NCBI GenBank assembly: GCA_964016885.1 | Contig: OZ024749.1 | Location: 55,490,001 to 55,554,000, forward strand | Direction: 5' to 3' | Length of the DNA stretch: 64,000 nt | Origin: Eledone cirrhosa | Lineage: Eukaryota | Shown: positions 4,176 to 42,613 of the stretch, piece by piece | Position numbering within the stretch: position 1 is the first letter of the stretch | How the letters are laid out: every line of letters starts with the position of its first letter | Notes under the pieces: model-generated | Told to the model about the DNA's origin: nothing | Databases searched by the model: none | The model's input: only the letters and a program-made list of their open reading frames with translations | Program-made: the position numbers and the translations under genes

Positions 4176-4769
4176 GTGATGATGATGATAGAAAATAGAT
4201 TCCCCCCCACCCCATTAGCTTGATGGTACTGATATTATGGGACTCAGTAGGGGAGATGGGTGTGTGTGTGTGTAATATAAATGGAAAAAAAGTGAGAAGG
4301 AATAGGGTGGCTGGGAAGGTGAGGTGGTGGTGGTGGTATGTGGGTTATAGTAGTAGTAGGAGGGGGGAAAACATTTGTCTTTGAAAGGATTAGATAATAG
4401 CATTAATAACGACAACAGCAATAATAATACAAATAATGATAACAATAAAGAGACCTCCCCCCCTTCTATGTTGGCAGTTTGGGATTATTTCTAAATGTGG
4501 AGAAGAAAACAGAAACTAGACCAAAACAATTAGAAAATAGAAAACATATATGTGTGTGTATATATTACACATATTTATATACATATATCTATATACACAT
4601 ATACATATATATACATATATCTATATACACATATATACATATATCTATATACACATATATATACATATATATATCATCATCATCGTTTAACGTCTATCTT
4701 CCACGCTAGCATGGGTTAGACGGAAATTGTCCTGAGACAAGATTGGTCGGGTGACCGTGTCTCGCTCGT

Positions 4770-4809
4770 ATATATACATATATATACACATATATATACA
4801 CATACATAT

Positions 4810-4842
<33 letters not shown>

Positions 4843-5013
4843 CACATATATATATATACACATATATATATACATACATACATACATATATATATACATA
4901 CATATATATACACATATATATATATACACATATATATATACATACATACATACATATATATATACATACATATATATATACATATATATATATATACATA
5001 CATATATATATAC

Positions 5014-5064
<51 letters not shown>

Positions 5065-5276
5065 CATATATACATATATATATATACATACATATATATA
5101 TACATACATATATACATACATACATATATACATACATGGATATATACATACATACATATATACATACATACATATATACATACATACATATATATATACA
5201 TACATACATATATACATACATACATATATACATACATACATATATATATACATACATATATACATACATACATATA

Positions 5277-5310
<34 letters not shown>

Positions 5311-5320
5311 CATACATACA

Positions 5321-5354
<34 letters not shown>

Positions 5355-6092
5355 CATACATACATATATACATACATAGATATATACATACATAGATATA
5401 TACCTACATAGATATATACATACATAGATATATACATACATACATATATACATACATACATATATACATACATACATATATACATACATACATATATACA
5501 TACATACATATATACATACATACATATATATATACATACATATATATATACATACATATATATATACATATATATATACATACATATATATATACATATA
5601 TATATACATATATATATACATATACATATACATACATATATATATATACATATATATATACATATATATATACATACATATATATATACATACATATATA
5701 TATACATACATATATACATACATACATATATACATACATATATACATACATATATACATACATATATATATACATATATATATACATACATATATACATA
5801 CATATATATATACATATATATATACATATATATATACATATATATATACATATATATATACATATATATATACATATATATATACATATATATATACATA
5901 TATATATACATATATATACATATATATATACATATATATACATATATATACATATATATATACATATATATATACATATATATATATATACATATATATA
6001 TACATACATATATATATACATATATATATATATACATATATATATACATATATATATACATATATATATATATACATATATATATACATATA
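4770..6092. repeat. Compound (TA)n/(TACA)n microsatellite
   Basis: Direct reading. Confidence 0.95.
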
Positions 6093-6700
6093 TGGTGGCT
6101 GCCAACTCGTTTTCGAGTACGGCCACTACTTTATATCCATGTAGGAGAACCCCTACCGATGCGCTGAACGAGTGACTTTTTAGTCCAGCCAGCGACTTGA
6201 AAACTCTGGTACAAACACTACACTTGTGACAATTATTGACACATAGTGCTTTGCCTTTGGTACCATGTGACGACAAGTGCAGAGAGATCTCCAGATACAA
6301 AGCAATGCCTGTGCCGTGAAGCTTTTATAGTGAGCAAAGGCACTGCACAAAGCCAGTCCCACTCTCTTAACCAAGATGATATTTACCAAAAAGAAGAACA
6401 AGTCAACATCATTGGATACCATCAGGGTTGCAGGTGTTATATCAGAGTTTTCCTTCTCCTAGAATTCTGCCTTGACAAAGGCTAAGGGGTCATCTCTCCC
6501 ACTGATTTTGGATGGCCATTGACTCTTAAGAGCTCCTTTGCCCTTTGACAGGTTTTGTTTTTAGTCCTGCAGGATGTCCAAAGTCACCCTCCTCACCAAG
6601 AAACCTTGGTGGGGTTGCCAGTTTAGTCGCCAACGACCCGACCATGAGACAGGTTGTACTGGGATACATGTTACCAGTAGCACCAAGTGGTGACCTGACA
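6093..6700 (-). mobile_element. Degraded RTE/BovB-like LINE fragment between two microsatellite blocks
   Basis: Translation [19 protein letters not shown] resembles the C-terminal zinc-finger-like motif of RTE ORFs; GC-richer island. Confidence 0.55.
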
Positions 6701-6701
6701 T

Positions 6702-7102
6702 AATGTATATATGTATGTATATATGTATGTATGTATTATGTATGTATATATATATGTATGTATATATGTATATATATATGTATATATATATGTATGTATA
6801 TATGTATGTATATACATATATACATACATATATACATACATATATACATACATATATATATACATACATAATACATACATACATATATACATACATATAT
6901 ACATACATATATATATACATACATATATACATACATATATATATACATATATATATACATACATATATATACACATATATATACACATACATATATATAT
7001 ACATATATATACACATACATATATATATACATATATATATACATACATATATATACACATACATATATATATACATATATATATACATACATATATATAT
7101 AC

Positions 7103-7133
<31 letters not shown>

Positions 7134-7938
7134 CATATATATATATACATATATATATATACATATATATATATACATATATATATATACATATATATAT
7201 ATACATATATATATATACATATATATATATACATATATATATATACATATATATATATACATATATATATATACATATATATATATACATATATATATAT
7301 ACATATATATATATACATATATATATATACATATATATATATACATATATATATATACATATATATATATATACATATATATATATACATATATATATAT
7401 ACATATATATATATACATATATATATATATACATATATATATATACATATATATATATACATATATATATATACATATATATACATACATATATACATAC
7501 ATATATATATACATATATATATACATATATATATACATATATATATACATATATATATACATATATATATACATATATATATACATACATATATATATAC
7601 ATATATATATACATATATACATACATATATATATACATATATATATACATATATATATACATATATATATATATACATATATATATACATATATATATAC
7701 ATATATATATATATACATATATATATACATATATATATACATACATATATATACATATATATATATATACATATATATATATACATATATATATATACAT
7801 ATATATATATACATATATATATATACATATATATATATATACATATATATATACATATATATATACATATATATATATATACATATATATATACATACAT
7901 ATATATATACATATATATATACATACATATATATATAC

Positions 7939-7973
<35 letters not shown>

Positions 7974-8325
7974 CATATATATATACATATATATATACAT
8001 ATATATATACATATATATATACATATATACATATATACATATATACATATATACATACACATGAAATATTATAACTAAAAAACAGAATATATACTATATA
8101 ATATATAATAAATAATATTAATATATAATATATAATAAATAATAAATAATATATAATATATAATATATAATAAATAATATATAATATATAATATATAATA
8201 TATAATAAATAATAAATAATATATAATATATAATATATAATAAATAATATATAATATATAATAAATAATATTAATATATAATAAATAATATTAATATATA
8301 ATAAATAATATATAATACATAATAA
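6702..8325. repeat. Compound (TA)n/(TACA)n microsatellite followed by an AT-only tract
   Basis: Direct reading. Confidence 0.95.
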
Positions 8326-9319
8326 ATTTTTCTTTCCGGAAGAAAATAAAACAAAAAAAAATGGAAAAAAAAAAAAAAGAGAAAAAAATAAACAAAAGAA
8401 AGAGGAAGGGATTTCAATAGGGTATGGCGGGGGTGGAACGTCTTTGTAGAATTGATTCATGAAAAGATGTGAAGAATTAATATGATGAATAGGAATGGTG
8501 GGGAGGTGGAGAGACAGGAGGTTTGTAAAGAGGGGGGGTAGATGTGGTGGTGAGGTGGAGAGGAGGGAGGGCTGTAAAGGGGGTGGGGTGGGTGGTGTGT
8601 TCAGAGAAGCAGACAGTGTATATTGGGCCAAAGTTCTAACATCCAGGTCTTTTAGAGTTCCTTAAATGCTATCATCTCAGCTAAGCATGAAGCAAGTTGG
8701 TTAAATCCAGCTCTTTAACTAAAGATGGTGGAAGGGAGAGAGGTGAGGTACTATGGAAGGTGGGTTGTGGGGGACGGCTGTGTGAAATGTCTGTTTGTGT
8801 ATAGGTGTGTGTTTCTGTGTGCGTCAGTGCATATAGGTGTGTGTGTGTGTGTGTGTCTTATGTATGGGTGTGCGTGTGTGTCTATTTATGGGCGTGTGTG
8901 TGTGTGTCTATGTATGGGTGTGTGTGTGTCTATGTATGGGTGTGTGTGTGTCTATGTATGGGTGTGTGTGTGTCTATGTATGGGTGTGTGTGTGTGTGTG
9001 TGTCTATGTATGGGTGTGTGTGTGTGTCTATGTATGGGTGTGTGTGTGCGTCTATGTATGGGTGTGTGTGTGTCTATGTATGGGTGCGTATGTGTGTGTC
9101 TATGTATGGGTGCGTGTGTGTGTCTATGTATGGGTGTGTCTATGTATGGGTGTGTGGCTGTTTGTCTGTCTGTGAGAGTGTGTGTCTGTGTTTGGGTGTG
9201 TGCGTCTGTTTGGGAAGGAGACATGAGCGTGTGATGGTGGTGGTGGGTGGGGGAGGTCATAGAAATGTAGAAATTAATTAGAATATTGGAGTTATTCTAT
9301 GATAGCTAGACTCCTGTAG

Positions 9320-10200: not shown

Positions 10201-10669
10201 CAGAAATATGATGGTCTCCCTAGTGCTAGTAACACTCTAGAATGCTCTTGGTAGAGAGCTGAGTTATATAAATATATATGATAATAATCAGTGTTGGCTG
10301 AGCCAATCAATCCTCCAATAATGTTGTAATCAGGCAGAAGCACTCTACGTCATGATTGTCATAAGGTATTATGTGTATAGTATCAGACAGCATATCTATA
10401 TATATATATATATGGGGGGGGGTAGGAAGGAGGAGGAAGACTACAGGAAGAAACACAATAATGGTGGTGGTGGTAGGAGAAGCCAAAGATGATGACCTGG
10501 ATATTTTGTTCCCTATATATGCCCCTCCTTCCTTCCATCCTACCTGTCTCTCTCACTGTCCACATTCCTCCTCAGCCTCCTCTTCCTCCTATTTAGACAG
10601 CAGCAAAGCTCTTTTGTAATGATGTGAAAGATAAAAGAGGGATTCTTGTTTTGGAGGCAGCTCTCTCCG

Positions 10670-10691
10670 TGCCTCTCTGTGTGCCTCTCTG

Positions 10692-10726
<35 letters not shown>

Positions 10727-12470
10727 GTGTCTGTCTGTGTCTGTGTCTGTCTGTCTGTCTGTCTCTGTGTCTGTCTCTGTGTCTGTCTCTGTGTCTGTCC
10801 CTGTCTCTGTGCCTGTCTCTGTGCCTGTCTCTGTGCCTGTCTCTGTGCCTGTCTCTGTGCCTGTCTCTGTGCCTGTCTCTGTGCCTGTCTCTGTGCCTGT
10901 CTCTGTGCCTGTCTCTGTGCCTGTCTCTGTGCCTGTCTCTGTGCCTGTCTCTGTGCCTGTCTCTGTGCCTGTCTCTGTGTCTGTCTCTGTGTCTGTCTCT
11001 GTGTCTGTCTCTGTCTCTGTCCCTGTCTCTGTCCCTGTCTCTGTGCCTGTCTCTGTGCCTGTCTCTGTGCCTGTCTCTGTGCCTGTCTCTGTGCCTGTCT
11101 CTGTGCCTGTCTCTGTGCCTGTCTCTGTGCCTGTCTCTGTGCCTGTCTCTGTGCCTGTCTCTGTGCCTGTCTCTGTGCCTGTCTCTGTGCCTGTCTCTGT
11201 GCCTGTCTCTGTGCCTGTCTCTGTGCCTGTCTCTGTGCCTGTCTCTGTGCCTGTCTCTGTGCCTGTCTCTGTGCCTGTCTCTGTGCCTGTCTCTGTCCCT
11301 GTCTCTGTCCCTGTCTCTGTCCCTGTCTCTGTCCCTGTCTCTGTCCCTGTCTCTGTCCCTGTCTCTGTCCCTGTCTCTGTCCCTGTCTCTGTGCCTGTCC
11401 CTGTCTCTGTCCCTGTCTCTGTCCCTGTCTCTGTCCCTGTCTCTGTCCCTGTCTCTGTCCCTGTCTCTGTCCCTGTCTCTGTCCCTGTCTCTGTCCCTGT
11501 CTCTGTCCCTGTCTCTGTCCCTGTCTCTGTCCCTGTCTCTGTCCCTGTCTCTGTCCCTGTCTCTGTCCCTGTCTCTGTCCCTGTCTCTGTCCCTGTCTCT
11601 GTCCCTGTCTCTGTCCCTGTCTCTGTGCCTGTCTCTGTGCCTGTCTCTGTGCCTGTCTCTGTGCCTGTCTCTGTGCCTGTCTCTGTGCCTGTCTCTGTGC
11701 CTGTCTCTGTCCCTGTCTCTGTGCCTGTCTCTGTGCCTGTCTCTGTGCCTGTCTCTGTGCCTGTCTCTGTGCCTGTCTCTGTGCCTGTCTCTGTGCCTGT
11801 CTCTGTGCCTGTCTCTGTGCCTGTCTCTGTGCCTGTCTCTGTGCCTGTCTCTGTGCCTGTCCCTGTGCCTGTCCCTGTGTCTGTCCCTGTCTCTGTCCCT
11901 GTCTCTGTCCCTGTCTCTGTCCCTGTCTCTGTGCCTGTCTCTGTCCCTGTCTCTGTGCCTGTCTCTGTCCCTGTCTCTGTGCCTGTCTCTGTGCCTGTCT
12001 CTGTCCCTGTCTCTGTGCCTGTCTCTGTGCCTGTCTCTGTGCCTGTCTCTGTGCCTGTCTCTGTGCCTGTCTCTGTGCCTGTCTCTGTGCCTGTCTCTGT
12101 GCCTGTCTCTGTGCCTGTCTCTGTGCCTGTCTCTGTGCCTGTCTCTGTGCCTGTCTCTGTGCCTGTCTCTGTGCCTGTCTCTGTGCCTGTCTCTGTGTCT
12201 GTCTCTGTGTCTGTCTCTGTGTCTGTCTCTGTGTCTGTCTGTGTGTCTGTCTGTGTGTCTGTGTCTGTCTGTGTCTGTCTGTGTCTGTCTGTGTCTGTCT
12301 GTGTGTGTCTGTGTGTGTCTGTGTGTGTCTGTGTGTGTCTGTGTCTGTCTGTGTGTGTCTGTGTGTGTCTGTGTGTGTGTGTCTGTCTGTGTGTGTCTGT
12401 CTGTCTGTCTGTGTCTGTCTGTGTCTGTCTGTGTCTGTCTGTGTCTGTCTGTCTGTGTCTGTCTGTCTGT
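10670..12470. repeat. 12-bp minisatellite CTGTCTCTGTGC/CTGTCTCTGTCC grading into (GTCT)n and (GT)n
   Basis: Direct reading; 4-aa periodic ORFs (QRQA/QRQG). Confidence 0.95.
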
Positions 12471-12639
12471 GCCTTTGTAAATGTGTGTGTGGGTCTGTTG
12501 GTGTATCTATATCTGTGTGTACCTCCGTGTGTGTGTGTACACCTTTATGTGAGAGTCTATACAAATGTGTATACACCGACCATATGTGTATAGGTGTGAA
12601 CATCTGTGTATGAGTGTGTGTGTGTTAAGTTGGTTAATG

Positions 12640-16604: not shown

Positions 16605-16712
16605 ATTTATTTAACTTTGCCTTTCATCCTTACGGGGTCGATAAAATAAAGTACCAGTAATACACTGAAATAATTGCTGGCCTTGTGCCAAAAGTAGAAA
16701 CAATTATTTATT
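16605..16712 (+). mobile_element. SINE family A, 5'-truncated
   Basis: Core and 3' part: CTTTGCCTTTCATCCTTACGGGGTCGATAAAATAAAGTACCAG...GTGCCAAAAGTAGAAAC. Confidence 0.8.
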
Positions 16713-16809: not shown

Positions 16810-17378
16810 AAACCATTGAGAGAGCCTCTATGTGGTGACACAAACCACTAGAAATAGCAGCTAAAAATCCTTACTATCTTTTTTTTAAAAAAGGACATAT
16901 ATTGTAGAATGTAGCAATCTGATTTAAAATTGACCCCCCCCCCCCCCAAATGGGTCAGGCAACTCTACAGCTGGATGCACTTCCTAACGCCAACTACATT
17001 ACAGTATGGACTGGGTGCTTTTTACCGTGACACCAAAATGACTATTTAACAGGGTGGAGGACTTTGGTGTTGTTGCATCGTGGAACCAACATGAGCACCT
17101 ACCTTGCAGGGTGGACTGGGCGCTTTTTGTCATGTCTACTTTCTTAGTAGCAAGAAAAAAAAAAAAAAAGAAAAAAAAACGTGGGGGGGGGGGGGTATTT
17201 AAATAAACAATGGGATGGCCACAGCTGGAAAATCTTTTATCATTGATCTGATGGATCAGATATCAATCACCCCATCCTGGTGGTACACAACAACAACAAC
17301 TACAGTAACAGGGGGAATATTATGGTTGCTCGATTTGTTAAAAATAGAAAAATCTCCGCCTACATAATGTTTAAATAG

Positions 17379-17568
17379 TAATTGTTTCTACTTTTGGCAC
17401 AAGGCCAGCAATTACCCAGTGCATTACTGGTACTTTATTTTATTGACCCCGTAAGGATGAAAGGCAAAGTCAACCTCGGCGGGATTTGAACTCAGATCGT
17501 AAAGGGATGTAACTATGCTGGAAAGCATGGTGTCCGACCCTCTACTGATACTGCCAATCCACCACCCC
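17379..17568 (-). mobile_element. tRNA-derived SINE (family A) whose head seeds the adjacent minisatellite
   Basis: Minus strand has A-box TGGCAGTATCAG, B-box GAGTTCAAATCC and core GCCTTTCATCCTTACGGGGTCAATAAAATAAAGTACCAG. Confidence 0.85.
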
Positions 17569-23438: not shown

Positions 23439-24311
23439 TCTATATATATAAAACTGTGGTTGTCTGTCTGTCTATCGATTTTTGGCACACATCTCCTCTT
23501 AGAATCTCTCACGGAATTGCACCGAAATTGCTATACTTGTACATTGAGCCCTAGCGAAGACATCGGAAAAAAAAATATTTCAAATTGACCCACCCTATGT
23601 GACGAAATCGAATATAATGTATCGATTTTTGAGCGTAAGTTATCAGTTATTTCCCTTTGTTCTGTTTACATTGAGCGTCTTACGTAAAAAATTATGCTGG
23701 CTTTAACAGTTGTAGAGCCAGCAAAATATTGACCTGCAAAATTCATCAGTTCGAACACTAAGCTTCCGTTTTGCTTCATTTCCATTTAAAAGCATTTTAA
23801 AACAATATTTTTACTTGAAAACAAGTCTATTTAAAGACTACGTAAAACAAGCAAATATTTCGTCGTTAGGCGTGCAGACAGACAGTCGTGCAGACAGACA
23901 GTCGTGCAGACAGACAGTCGTGCAGACAGACAGTCGTGCAGAGAGGTGATATAGGCGTGCAGACAGACAGTCGTGCAGAGAGGTGATATAGGCGTGCAGA
24001 CAGACATAACTGATAATTTGGTTACGCTAATGTTTTTCTCTGCGTTGCAGTGTTTACATTTTCGATCTTTGTTAATAAATAACCAGTGCAGTTTCTATCC
24101 CCAGCATCCTCTTTTGTTATAACATTCGGGTTATCGTTATGTTTTCTTAACTTCATAAGGCATATTGTTGGTTGAGGGAATATTAATCAAAAACACCACA
24201 TGCAAGTCTGCACAGTAGACACTACAGTTTTTAAGCCAAGAAAGAAACTTAACATTGTAACTTTAACACAGCTACTGAGCGACCCCGAGCAACGCCGGGC
24301 TTTACTGCTAG
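23439..24311 (+). mobile_element. Non-autonomous Helitron, complete termini
   Basis: Starts TCTATATATATAAA after an A, has a subterminal GC hairpin CCCGAGCAACGCCGGG (24284-24299), ends CTAG before a T. A|T insertion with no TSD, interrupting an AGAAT-rich host tract. Internal 16-bp tandem repeat at about 23870-24005. Confidence 0.85.
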
Positions 24312-24345
24312 TACAGAATAGAATAGAACACAGAATGACAGAATA

Positions 24346-25350
<1,005 letters not shown>

Positions 25351-26017
25351 ATATAGAATGAGTATATAGAATTAGAATAACCAAACATGAATACAGGAAT
25401 ATCCCAAAACAGACACCAAATCTGACAAAGAATACTTTTAAAAAATCTCTATCTTTCCCTCTCTTTAGGGAAGAAAAAAAAAAATGGTATTTAGAATTCA
25501 GACAATTCTATATAAAATTGATTATTTACAGACAGATATTGTATCTTAAAATGGGGAAGGGTTGTAGAAATCTTAGTTTAAATAATGCTGTTGATCCTAG
25601 ATATACTGTTTAAAACCAAATAGATGGACATGGTTGGAAGAGCTTTAAGCAAAGATCAGTAAAATTAGAATGATAGGTGAAAGTGGTGAGAAGCAGATCT
25701 CAGATCACTGAGACTCACAGAGGAGAGATGAGATGCTGAAAAGGATCTGTCCAACCCATGCTAAAATGGAAAAATGGACGTAAAAATGATGATGATGAAC
25801 TTGAAACAAAAGATCAACTATGAATTTAAACCAAACTCATTAAGACAATTAACAGCTCACACTTCCATTGTTATTAATCGTTATATTTTGAACATTATGA
25901 AGACTGAACTGTAATTAAGGAAACTTATTTGAAGCCTAACAAGGATATGATGTGATAAAGAGTTCCATCTGGACAAAGTAATAAAGCAGGAAACATTAAT
26001 AAGTTGTACCTTATCAA

Positions 26018-26227: not shown

Positions 26228-26384
26228 GTGGTTGGCATTAAGAAGGGCATCCAGCAATAGAAAACCAGCCAGAAATACCCTAATATGAGCGAGACACGGT
26301 CACCCGACCCAACTTACCTCTAAATGGGACCTGTCTAACCCATGCTAACATGGAAGATAGACGTTAATGGATGATGATGATGAT
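26228..26384 (+). mobile_element. (GAT)n-tailed SINE (family B) sharing its 3' end with the RTE LINE
   Basis: GTGGTTGGCATTAAGAAGGGCATCCAGC...GTCTAACCCATGCTAACATGGAAGATAGACGTTAATGGATGATGATG. Related copies at about 4675, 9725, 25745, 28981, 29108, 34620, 42925, 49057 and 56078. Confidence 0.8.
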
Positions 26385-26595
26385 ATATATATATATGAAT
26401 CAGATTGATATGATATGACTTAAAGTCTCCTCTTTTGACAGTTGTTTTACCTTCTTCCTTGTACATCCATTTTACAAACAACATTTACAATATGTTCTAA
26501 ATTGTGTCTTTGTAGGGCAAGTAGATAAGATTGCATGCAAGGTTTTCATGTATTTTTCCATGTAAAAGAGTGCGACTTACACATGAATACATATG

Positions 26596-26631
<36 letters not shown>

Positions 26632-26802
26632 TATACATATGCATGCATGTCTCTGTGTGTGCGTAGATGCATATAAGTGTATAAGAGAACATTTAGTCAT
26701 TTTACGGATGTTTTAAACAAACATTGCATTTCACATATAACAAAAAAAGAATTACATGAAACATAATCCAAGAAAGGTTTTTAAAATAAAGTAAAAACTT
26801 AC

Positions 26803-26991
26803 TTTTATCGAGTCAAAACAAGCTGTCACGCGTCCATTTTGTACTTCTACGTGAGAGGGCGGATGAGCAAATTTGCATTCTGTTTCGGAGCGTGTGCATT
26901 TGTTCCTCTGGAACTCGCGGCAAACTTCCAGTGTCAGCCATCGCGAGTCTTTGACGTTAGCAAGATTAAGCATAGGGTTAACCATGGCCAT
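26803..26991 (-). CDS. mbl: Muscleblind/MBNL RNA-binding splicing regulator, first coding segment (63 codons: complete CCCH ZnF1 plus the first Cys of ZnF2)
   Basis: Translation [63 protein letters not shown] has the MBNL signature [10 protein letters not shown] and C-x7-C-x6-C-x3-H spacing. It ends ATA AAA|GTAAGT (donor GT at 26802-26801, phase 0), the intron position known after ACFDSLK-type sequence in MBNL genes. Confidence 0.97.
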
Positions 26992-27930
26992 AACAAATGT
27001 GGTATCTTCTTCACAGAAAGAAGTTTTGAAAGACTTCGGGGTGTGCGCGCGGATAAAGGGGGATAAATGGGAGTATGTGTGTCTGTGTGTGTCGTATATA
27101 TATATTGTATATTTGGATGAAAGAGAGAGAGAGAGACAAACAGACAGGGAAGAATAAAACGAAAAACGATTTGGACTGTCGGTTTTTTTTTTTAAATTTC
27201 AAAATAAAAAAACAACGATTAAAAGATGGACAATGGACAGACGAAAATAATTATAGTCGAATGTAAAATGGAATTATGATCCGAATGGTTTCCAGTAATC
27301 GGAATATTTTGTTATATTTTTCTTTTGATTGTGCTTTCAGAGCAGCATAAGATCAGCAGAGAATTGGTGGTACTTTGGAGTAGCGTATATGTATGCTGCG
27401 GTTGTGTATATGCATGCGTGTGCTGTGATAATACAACGGCTGCCAAGAATTGATTATATAGTTTTGGTTTTTTAAAGAGGGGTAGGGGACTTTATTTTTA
27501 TTTATATATATATATATAAAATCTCACAGCAACTGCACATTTGGGGAGGAAAAACGTTTTTAGTCGGAGGGGGTGTATGGAAAAAAAGGGTATATTTATA
27601 TATTATATTTTCTAATATACATATATATATATTAATTTCGTTTTTGTGTTGTTTTTTTTTTCTTTCAAATATTTATCTTAAATATTTAATTAAAATTTAA
27701 TTCTTTGTAAAAAAAAAAAAAATAACACCGTATTTCTTATTCGCTTTTAAATTCGGATAATGCTGGACATTTGTGTGTGTGTTTTTTTTTCTTTCTGCTG
27801 TTGTTTTTGTCGGGGGAAAATGTGGTTTTTTTTTTTTTTACAAAAAAGGTAAAAATATTTGAAAATATCCAATTTCACACCAACTTATGGGTTCCAGCAG
27901 TGTTTTTTCCTGAACAAATTATGGTTGAAC
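26992..27930 (-). other. mbl: Predicted 5' UTR part of the ATG-bearing mbl exon (whole exon 27930..26803, 1128 nt)
   Basis: Minus strand reads TTTTAGTAACAATTGGTTTTTTTATTATATTTTTCAG|GTTCAACC: a pyrimidine-rich tract plus CAG at 27933-27931. The interval lacks SINE insertions and is CpG-richer than its flanks. Confidence 0.7.
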
Positions 27931-28162
27931 CTGAAAAATATAATAAAAAAACCAATTGTTACTAAAAATATTCACAAAATATCATTATTGTATATATTCA
28001 AATAACAACAATTTCAAGTAAGAAACATCTTTGTTTGTTTTTTTTAATATCTAGTTTACCTATTGACACGGAATAGGGGGAAAAAATTAAATTATCCCAC
28101 GGCAAGATTTGAAGTGAGACCATAAAAGTCAACTGATTGCCAATCATTGCAATTATAATAAT

Positions 28163-28441
28163 TTACGAGGTCGATAAAATAAAGTACCAGTAATACACTG
28201 GTGTAATAGCTGGCCTTGTGCCAAAAGTAGAAACAATTATTATTATTATTAATAGTTTCCGATATAAGCACAGGGTCAACAATTTGAAGGGAAGTGGAAA
28301 GTCGATTAAATCGACCTCAGTACATTACTGGTACTTTATTTTATCAACCATGTAAGGATGAAAGGCAAAGTTAACCTTGGCGGGATTTGAACTCAGAAAA
28401 TAAAGGGTCGCAACGATATGCTGCAAAGCATGGAGTCTGAC
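28163..28441. mobile_element. Two tail-to-tail SINE family A copies (+ 28163-28250, - 28255-28441) just upstream of the mbl acceptor
   Basis: Core motif GTCGATAAAATAAAGTACCAG present in both orientations. Confidence 0.8.
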
Positions 28442-28980
28442 AATAATAATAATAATCTCATACAAAAGACACAAAAAATATTTGTAAAAATTGTGCAACC
28501 ATCAGAGAAATAATTACTTAAAACTTAATTAGTCAGTCAAAAGTAATGTCAAACTAGATCCGAGATTATCAAATAGAGAAATATAGAAGAAGACATAACT
28601 AAAGCAAAAGATTAGAATCGTTTAGTCTGTCTGTTAAATCTGTTGAAATGGGTGTGGCCCTACACTTTTGCTCATGGTTTCTATATGTTTTGGGTTCCAT
28701 TTGAGATTTTGAAGAGGGGAGGGTCGGATTTTTGATTTTTTAAATATAATTTTGGCAAAGGGAAAATAATAAACACAGACAAACAGACACAAAACAAAAT
28801 TAAAAAAAAGGATTAATTAACAACAAATGACATTCTCAGCTGTATTTTTAATTAAATGTCAACTAATAGTGAATAACCTGCAAAAATACCTATCTATTTG
28901 TGTGTATATATATCCGAATGCTTGTAGCTATGTATTTTTGTGTGCATGTATGTTTATATGTATCTAAATGTATTATATAT

Positions 28981-29170
28981 CATCATCATCGTTTAATGTC
29001 TATCTCCCACGCCAGCATGGGTTAGACGGGAATTGTCCCACTTGAAGCAAGATTAATCGGGTGACCGTATAGGACTCGGCAAATAGAAATACCAAAATAA
29101 CTGGCAGTCATCATCATCATCATCATCATTGTTTAACGTCCATCTTCCACGCTTGCATTGGTTTGGACAG
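28981..29170 (-). mobile_element. Two family B SINE 3' ends
   Basis: CATCATCATCGTTTAATGTCTATCTCCCACGCCAGCATGGGTTAGACGG... and a second copy from about 29108. Confidence 0.8.
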
Positions 29171-29299
29171 GAGTTTTCCCAAAACAGTATATATATATAT
29201 TTGCATACACACACACAGACATATATATGTCTCTCTGTGTGTGTATGCAAAAAATAGTAAACGAAAACAACACAGTACAACAAAGATATATATTAGTTT

Positions 29300-29765
29300 G
29301 ACACTTGATATAGCAGGTTGGGAAGGGAAAATAGTCAATGTTTCAGACACTAGGCCTTCATCGGATGATAGAATGAGAAATAAGTGACTGTGAGGCAAAC
29401 TTGTTAACCACAACAGCATACCTGAGCCATCAGTAAGTTGCCTTCAGCCCCTTGATAGGAAGGGGAATGAAGAATATTTAAAGATCTGATAAAAACTTAG
29501 GTTTAAGCAGCTTCCTGCTATGTAGCTAACATTTGTTAGAATAGCTAAGATGGGTGGGGATGGTATCTGACTGGGGAGGAAAGAAGGGTAGACAAATGGG
29601 GTTGGGGATGGGTGAATGAGGAAAAGGAACCATTTAGAATGTTTAGAAAACCAAATATGATTAACTTATTGCTGGCTGTATAATATATAATTGAGGGGTT
29701 GTTGTAGATCTGACTCTTGGCATTATCTTCCTGGTTTCTAATGTTGGAACAGTGAGGCTCTAAGA
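29300..29765 (-). mobile_element. Penelope-like element 3' remnant with degenerate hammerhead
   Basis: Minus strand CCGATGAAGGCCTAGTGTCTGAAACATTGAC (29364-29334) resembles PLE minimal hammerheads. Upstream translation KLIIFGFLNILNG weakly resembles PLE ORF ends. Confidence 0.45.
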
Positions 29766-31231
29766 GGGAATACATACAATACACACTACACATACATTAT
29801 TACACATATACACTACACATACATTATTACACATATACACTACACTACATACACACTACACATACATTATTACACATATACACTACACTACACATACATT
29901 ATTACACATATACACTACATACACACTACACATTCATTATTACACATATACACTACACATACATTACACATATACACCACACACATAAATACACATTCAC
30001 ACACTACACTACACATATACTACATCTATACTACACACAAATAGATATTTTGTTAGTTTACAAACAAAAGAAAAGATATATAAAACAAGATATAGAGATT
30101 ATATAAAATATAACAATGTGGTTATGTTGTAGAGTTTATATGTTATCCCAGTTTCTGTGGCGTTAAACTGAGATTACAAGATAGGACCCCAGTCCTGGAC
30201 AAGACGCCTCCAGCTATTGCCGAGTATACTGGAGAAATGTGAAATGAAGTGTTTTGCTCAAGAACACAAGACAACACACACAACCCGGTCCCAAAAACAA
30301 TGATATCAGATGAAACTTGGAATCATAGGACAACAAAGTGAATTTCTCAATCATACACACCCATGTCTAAACATGATATCCTTGGCATGGTTTCTGCTCA
30401 AGTAAATTAATACTAGAACAACATAATGAACCCAAAATTGATTGTACACTTTTGGCCTTGAACACGATGGTTGAGTGTTTTCACCAAGCTCAAATTATCA
30501 ACCACCATACACAGCCCTGTCTATATATACAACATTTCCTTGGCATGGTTACTGCCCAAATTAATAGTATGAGGGCACAATGAACTCAAAATTGATTGTG
30601 TACTTCAAGCCTTGAAGACGATGGTTGAGTGTTTTCGTCAAGCTCAAATTATCAAAGCATCATGAGATATGGACATTTGCCGAAGCAATCAAAGTAGCTG
30701 GGCGCTCTGCCAGAACAGCACGACCAATTTTTGTCAATATGATGAAAGAAATATTTCAGAAAACAAAGCAAGAGAACAATCATTTTTATTTTGGCAACAC
30801 ATAGAACCATTCTATATGACAAAACCAATCATAAAGAAAGACTACTTCAATAAAAGATGTCGTCTTCTCTTTTTATATTATTATATACGGCTTCATTCAT
30901 CCAGATTCTATAGATTTCTTTTTGCTTTGGGTTCTTTTTTGCTGTTTTTTGTTGTGTTTTTAGTTTGTTTGTTTGTTTCTCTCTTAGTAAGAAGAACCAA
31001 CAGATGCTTGTAGGCTGCAGACTGTGGAGAAAGGCCTCACGTCTCTCTCAATCAACTGAGACGGCGGCAGCTTTTATATATATTTATATATATATATATG
31101 TCTGTGTATGGGTGTGATCATCATCATCATCATTAACTATTCATTTTTTTACACTCGCATGGGTTAGATAGGTTGTTATGTTATAAGACAAGTCATATTC
31201 AGGAGATCATGTCATATTCCAGACACCACAA

Positions 31232-42567: not shown

Positions 42568-42613
<46 letters not shown>

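Follow-up and report, generated by a model that had tools for sequence, protein, structure and literature searches.

The start exon of muscleblind in the octopod Eledone cirrhosa and the prospect of a circular RNA

The ATG-bearing exon of muscleblind (mbl) in Eledone cirrhosa is, judged from its sequence, truly homologous to exon 2 of fly mbl and to e1 of human MBNL1, and in related organisms its donor is used in forward splicing to the exon that carries the second zinc finger (ZnF2). The explanation that we favor, and that we consider reasonably probable, is that this octopod start exon is spliced forward, likely lies internally in the transcript, and likely serves as a point of autoregulation at which a minor share of transcripts may skip the exon or form a circle. 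The exon lies on the minus strand of a 64,000-nt stretch of DNA (GenBank assembly GCA_964016885.1, contig OZ024749.1, positions 55,490,001 to 55,554,000), hereafter called the window; all positions are those of the window unless a contig name is given. On our analysis, it appears to be an expected, ordinary and conserved exon of a known gene, and a circular RNA made from it would be a reasonable extrapolation.

Results

Identity and structure of the exon

The peptide encoded by the exon is identical at 63/63 residues to Octopus sinensis muscleblind-like protein 1 (XP_036367045.1 and its isoforms), and it also matches the human MBNL1 and MBNL2 structures. The elements of the exon are as follows.

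26803 to 27930, minus strand: muscleblind ATG-bearing exon, 1,128 nt, composed of 939 nt of 5' UTR and 189 nt of coding sequence
27931 to 27950, minus strand: splice acceptor, a T-rich tract with AG at 27932-27931
26797 to 26802, minus strand: splice donor GTAAGT, phase 0, opening a 52,627-nt intron toward the ZnF2 exon
26803 to 26991, minus strand: coding portion, 63 aa, 100% identical to O. sinensis MBNL; match to the MBNL2 structure 2rpp_A with an E value of 6.5e-26
26863 to 26922, minus strand: zinc finger 1 (ZnF1), C-X7-C-X6-C-X3-H
27919 to 27930, minus strand: first 12 nt of the exon, predicted to read V-Q-P-stop upon back-splicing

A preliminary description of this DNA had proposed an internal exon at 27930 to 26803 with a strong acceptor, a long 5' UTR, an ATG and a phase-0 donor, and the acceptor, UTR, ATG and donor were each reproduced from the sequence. 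The ATG at 26991 opens a run of 63 codons that reaches the donor in phase 0 (AAA/GTAAGT). With pyrimidines at 14/17 positions, the acceptor at 27931 ranks third among the 64 YAG sites of 26992-30000, and within the 939-nt UTR no YAG scores at least 13/17 pyrimidines. The 63-aa segment contains the cysteines and histidine of ZnF1 (C24, C32, C39 and H43) together with C58, which is the first cysteine of ZnF2.

When the O. sinensis protein was compared with the 3.0-Gb genome, 8 matches were obtained, of which 7 are collinear on the minus strand of contig C9 and 1 is a weak match elsewhere. A single MBNL locus was found in the genome; its exons span about 175 kb of C9, and the later ones are 88-100% identical to O. 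sinensis MBNL. The next exon, which carries ZnF2 (C9:55464175-55463999), is 177 nt long, has phase 0 on either side and begins after 52,627 nt of intron. The features that mark muscleblind are found here, namely tandem CCCH fingers, a ZnF1 of the form WLxLEVCREF..C..CKFAHP and further finger exons on C9, as is the phase-0 intron after DS[I/L]K that splits ZnF2. This intron position recurs among 80 homologous loci on metagenome contigs, a redundant set that carries no species labels: the donor GT follows DS[I/L]K in 38/38 genomic loci, and 41/42 transcript-type loci proceed into ZnF2, with the remaining one (1/42) running into unrelated terminal sequence. Comparison of the UTR with these 80 distant loci gave similarity only at low-complexity matches, and a Pfam zf-CCCH profile search missed the present locus. 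Four O. sinensis RefSeq accessions yield one identical protein. Far downstream, an exon at C9:55342342-55342443 encodes part of a third zinc-finger pair (67% to the scallop MBNL C terminus); it is missing from two O. sinensis isoforms compared.

Linear splicing in relatives

Of 24 runs listed, none on record as RNA contains this stretch; twenty probable RNA runs from four other organisms share 10-12% of its words, and 8 runs were used. The RNA data used here are assembled contigs from 6 probable RNA runs, which represent four related organisms and five studies and whose library types are not on record. Runs X1 and X10 were assessed by depth and pieces only, their joints and loose ends being swamped by a high-copy repeat at 28135-28400 (630 joints and 1,087 loose ends outside the listing). 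The contigs cover the exon in blocks. Two further runs, X21 and X23, which belong to the species itself, were taken from the 4 runs that match the whole stretch; they do not cover the coding part, and X15 does not extend beyond 26831, but the records are filtered, so such holes are no evidence.

At the donor, contigs continue into sequence encoding GKCQRKDPPC, which belongs to the ZnF2 exon, in X2, X14 and X19 (3/4 runs with joints listed), and the contigs of X1 and X10 extend 177-178 nt beyond the donor. At the other end of the exon, the homology of the relatives' RNA ends within 5 nt of the acceptor in 6/6 probable RNA runs (27930-27935). The genome match ends at 27935 in X10 and, from bin depth, at ~27932 in X1; the X2 contig begins at 27930; and in X14, X15 and X19, which represent three organisms and three studies, an identical foreign 30-mer stands at the acceptor beyond 27935. 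This 30-mer is purine-mixed and has AGs close by, in contrast to an intron end, and its depth is at the level of exons. In X15, for example, the contig that crosses the acceptor has a depth of 1116, compared to 844-971 for the UTR contigs and 7.7 for a contig of the downstream intron. Because contigs join foreign sequence at the predicted acceptor, and do so at exon-level depth, the exon is likely internal and preceded by an upstream noncoding leader.

The foreign 30-mer was not located in the window, in the genome as a whole (allowing 2 and 3 mismatches) or in the 1.24 Mb upstream, a region that includes six 200-N gaps. The genome-wide search returned 5 matches on other contigs versus 2 control matches, and the best placements within the 1.24 Mb upstream had 10-11/30 mismatches. 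The 30-mer and the intron end have TTCAG in common, so in the relatives the 30-mer could adjoin the exon in the genome and not be spliced to it.

Search for a back-spliced form

According to the preliminary description, a muscleblind circle would also exist in a lophotrochozoan. The back-splice signature that we sought is a contig joint from 27930 back to 26803. No such joint is among the three joints listed for X2, X14, X15 and X19, whose contigs show only linear splicing; the listing leaves out 2 joints and 2 loose ends of X19 at repeats and a further 4 loose ends and 27 pieces. Exon-side depth at the donor corresponds to one linear contig in X1, X2, X10, X14 and X19; for X1 and X10 the donor depths are accounted for as 22.8 = 38.4 x 35/59 and 33.9 = 57.2 x 35/59. 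That the X2 contig begins precisely at 27930 could be due to alternative leaders or to a pruned back-splice branch, and was counted as no evidence. The proposed circle thus found no back-spliced contig in its favor in the 6 probable RNA runs of relatives. This negative result is weak, because it comes from contigs only, rare forms are dropped by assembly, the library type is not on record, the records are filtered and the species differ. We put the chance that some circle would be detectable in neural total RNA at about even.

Among published work, in which coverage is thin for subscription papers, we found no account of circMbl in a mollusc or other lophotrochozoan. A study of octopus total RNA reported 296 circRNAs in all, at low levels; neither its main text nor its supplementary PDF mentions mbl, and the circle may still be among the 296 that it lists (PMC9699675). 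The word "muscleblind" is likewise absent from the text and the one small supplement of an oyster circRNA paper (PMC13685108).

One homologous locus, L116:1747-2172, was considered as a possible back-spliced contig and rejected: it has no internal repeat, and its best explanation is splicing to a terminal exon. In this arthropod-type muscleblind transcript, the ATG exon continues into sequence in which the frame stops after 3 codons, giving a single-finger product via linear splicing. Among annotated insect isoforms, many (76-111 aa) resemble that product.

The circular reading frame

The preliminary description had further predicted that a circle would encode 66 aa with ZnF1 alone. The circular reading does add V-Q-P-stop after the 63 aa to give 66 aa, and this reading of the sequence was confirmed with the refinement that C58 is included as well, so that the product would hold one complete finger. 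Stop codons make up 3.4% of UTR triplets, at which density a stop is expected within 4 codons in 13% of cases and within 20 codons in 50%. A closed short ORF is therefore no signal, because any ATG exon that begins in UTR gives one once it is circularized. The ZnF2 exon is also phase 0, and a predicted two-exon circle would thus encode 125 aa with the complete ZnF1-2 pair. As a prediction, this 125-aa protein is the stronger functional candidate of the two.

Elements of the UTR and flanking introns

Four features of the UTR and its surroundings were noted.

27856 to 27930, minus strand: conserved noncoding block at the 5' end of the exon, 75 nt, with 1-3 differences in relatives (96-99%) and a YGCY at 27899
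27317 to 27363, minus strand: conserved UTR block with three YGCY (27358, 27347 and 27344), a candidate MBL binding site
27337 to 27770, minus strand: five upstream ATGs (27770, 27622, 27540, 27415 and 27348), each opening a short ORF (3-20 aa) that ends upstream of the main ATG
28974 to 29068, with its partner at 26296-26389: nearest inverted match across the exon, 99 nt at 77%, not above background

Both conserved blocks, 27856-27930 and 27317-27363, are alignable at 90% in 4/4 runs (X2, X14, X15 and X19). The three YGCY of 27317-27363 fall within 18 nt, a spacing that in a block picked post hoc gives a shuffle P of 0.001 for mononucleotides and 0.28 for dinucleotides; the whole UTR contains 6 YGCY versus 5.5-6.5 expected. 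In the flanking introns, YGCY enrichment within 0.2-1 kb is absent, with densities at or below background (1 per 500 nt downstream and 5 per 500 nt upstream; the window mean is 6.8 per kb). The strand bias of YGCY clusters in the window (5 sense, 0 antisense) was considered as a gene-specific feature and rejected; it recurs in far upstream bins. Flanking inverted matches are not above those at 30 control positions, of which 13/30 match or exceed the exon at 5 kb and 17/30 at 10 kb. The five upstream ATGs could dampen translation of linear and circular forms alike.

Discussion

The preliminary description rested its proposal on precedent, namely that the equivalent second exon forms circMbl in Drosophila and circMBNL1 in mammals under MBL control, and that the fly circle has been reported to be translated. 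Part of this precedent stands. The exon is homologous to the one from which circMbl arises in fly mbl and mammalian MBNL1/2 (exon 2), where the circle is described as buffering MBL (PMC9352392). For translation in the fly, ribosome footprints support the circMbl stop, but mass spectrometry (MS) identified the circMbl3 peptide only, so that the single-exon peptide lacks MS support (PMC5387669). The precedent of MBL control in mammals is softer than described. There, MBNL was found to bind clustered YGCY motifs within the 5' UTR portion of e1 and to promote skipping of the exon, but the e1 circRNA is scarce in muscle and did not fall upon MBNL sequestration in mouse and human (PMC5389549).

As these systems are described in the sources cited, the octopod exon resembles each of them in part. 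It shares with Drosophila circMbl (circMbl1 or circMbl(2), exon 2) the arrangement of 5' UTR, ATG and ZnF1 in one exon and the same conserved donor, and in both, reading around the circle ends a short protein at a stop within the UTR. In the fly, the circle is plentiful, resists RNase R and is promoted by MBL, whereas in the octopus case no junction was seen and the flanks are not YGCY-rich; the octopus clade also differs in being reported to have low circRNA and high ADAR activity. Mammalian MBNL1 e1 (exon 2) carries the whole of ZnF1, with ZnF2 split at the donor (PMC13044900), and the octopod exon is similar in this split, in a UTR YGCY cluster and, probably, in being the first coding exon after noncoding leaders. 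In mouse and human MBNL1 e1, nine conserved YGCY lie within a CLIP cluster in the 5'-most part (PMC5389549), whereas the octopus exon has three clustered motifs, as candidate sites, mid-UTR and one near the 5' end. A third comparison is with O. sinensis MBNL1, to which the exon is identical over 63/63 residues and the later exons are 88-100% identical; its RefSeq protein records are silent on circles.

Given these likenesses, MBL protein may bind the UTR YGCY cluster of the start exon, and once bound it may cause a small fraction of transcripts to skip the exon or to form a circle. We propose binding and skipping because mammalian MBNL binds the YGCY of the e1 UTR and promotes skipping (PMC5389549). 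Most of the output would presumably be linear mRNA that encodes full-length MBL. Without the exon, both the ATG and ZnF1 would be gone, and the next methionine of the O. sinensis protein is residue 118, behind ZnF2. A circle, if made, would likely be a low-level by-product or a sink, although contigs from libraries of unrecorded type do not establish that its share is small, and its 66-aa ORF would follow automatically from the layout of the exon.

Other readings assign more, or less, to the circle. An abundant MBL-controlled circMbl in octopus nervous tissue, buffering MBL levels in the style of the fly head, seems unlikely to us, even though exon and donor are shared with fly and human (PMC9352392), the downstream intron is long (52.6 kb), the UTR blocks with YGCY are conserved and the X2 contig start could mark a pruned back-splice branch as well as alternative leader exons. 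Against it, the back-splice joint is found in 0/4 runs, donor depth in X1 and X10 is that of one linear contig, flanking YGCY are at or below background and inverted matches are not above controls. The one octopus circRNA survey cited above also reports low circRNA, with mbl unmentioned in its text and supplementary PDF (PMC9699675). The further step, in which translation of the circle yields a functional peptide of 66 aa with a single finger, is highly improbable. Its ORF closes right after the junction, and the A/U-rich UTR agrees with the landing model put forward for circMbl in the fly; in that system, however, reporters place translation of the circle 60-300 times below that of a linear mRNA, and the product is without assigned function (bioRxiv 2025.10.31.685782). 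Relatives match the first 75 nt of the exon at 96-99%, but near-acceptor conservation has other causes, and stop conservation close to splice sites has been described as ambiguous (PMC5387669). The peptide also depends on a circle that the contigs do not show, a closed ORF is expected by chance, and no protein with the predicted V-Q-P tail is found among the best 120 of 370 short homologues. MBNL zinc fingers fold and bind as pairs, and this product would be a lone ZnF1 with no tandem partner.

It is also possible, though we think it quite improbable, that the exon is a first exon or that the acceptor at 27931 is unused in E. cirrhosa, in which case no single-exon circle of this size would be made. 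The upstream partner was not found in the genome, the RNA is from relatives, and TTCAG is common to the foreign sequence and the intron end. The relatives' homology nevertheless stops no more than 5 nt from a canonical acceptor in every one of the 6 probable RNA runs, and the foreign sequence, purine-mixed with nearby AGs and present at exon-level depth, does not look like an intron end. In addition, one identical protein from four O. sinensis RefSeq accessions is what alternative leaders would give.

Fly and human stand on both sides of the bilaterian root. The suggestion in the preliminary description that a lophotrochozoan circle would make circMbl pan-bilaterian is therefore overstated, since fly and mammal already span Bilateria. 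If the circle were found, it would add a third clade, the lophotrochozoans, and no new principle, a moderate gain, and it would favor one ancient origin over convergence. The octopus would be a useful test case: repeat-driven circles are proposed to be held down by its high ADAR activity, so that survival of circMbl there would indicate protein-driven biogenesis. We regard as speculative, and rather unlikely, an MBL-controlled octopus circMbl that forms despite ADAR-suppressed circRNA by means of the conserved UTR YGCY cluster and not of intronic repeats. If this were true, the feedback circle would be present in all three great bilaterian clades and would be among the oldest conserved circular RNAs.

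Other features of the window and its surroundings

The upstream intron contains, at 28135-28400, a very high-copy short interspersed repeat, which we take to be a SINE, with a summed contig depth of 1e5-1e6, the RNA runs of relatives included. In the downstream intron, this repeat recurs in inverted orientation at 17374-17454 (93% over 82 nt) and at 16611-16668, and the copies could form dsRNA for ADAR. Also in the upstream intron, a short sense-strand (TGC)n run at 42570-42605 constitutes a dense YGCY array. The long ORFs of the window are formed by long simple-sequence arrays (4687-8460, 10540-12603, 24249-25388 and 56977-57657), none of which is gene-like. About 520 kb upstream, a 3-kb GC- and CpG-rich stretch (C9:56036400-56039700) is probably a coding region or a mobile element.
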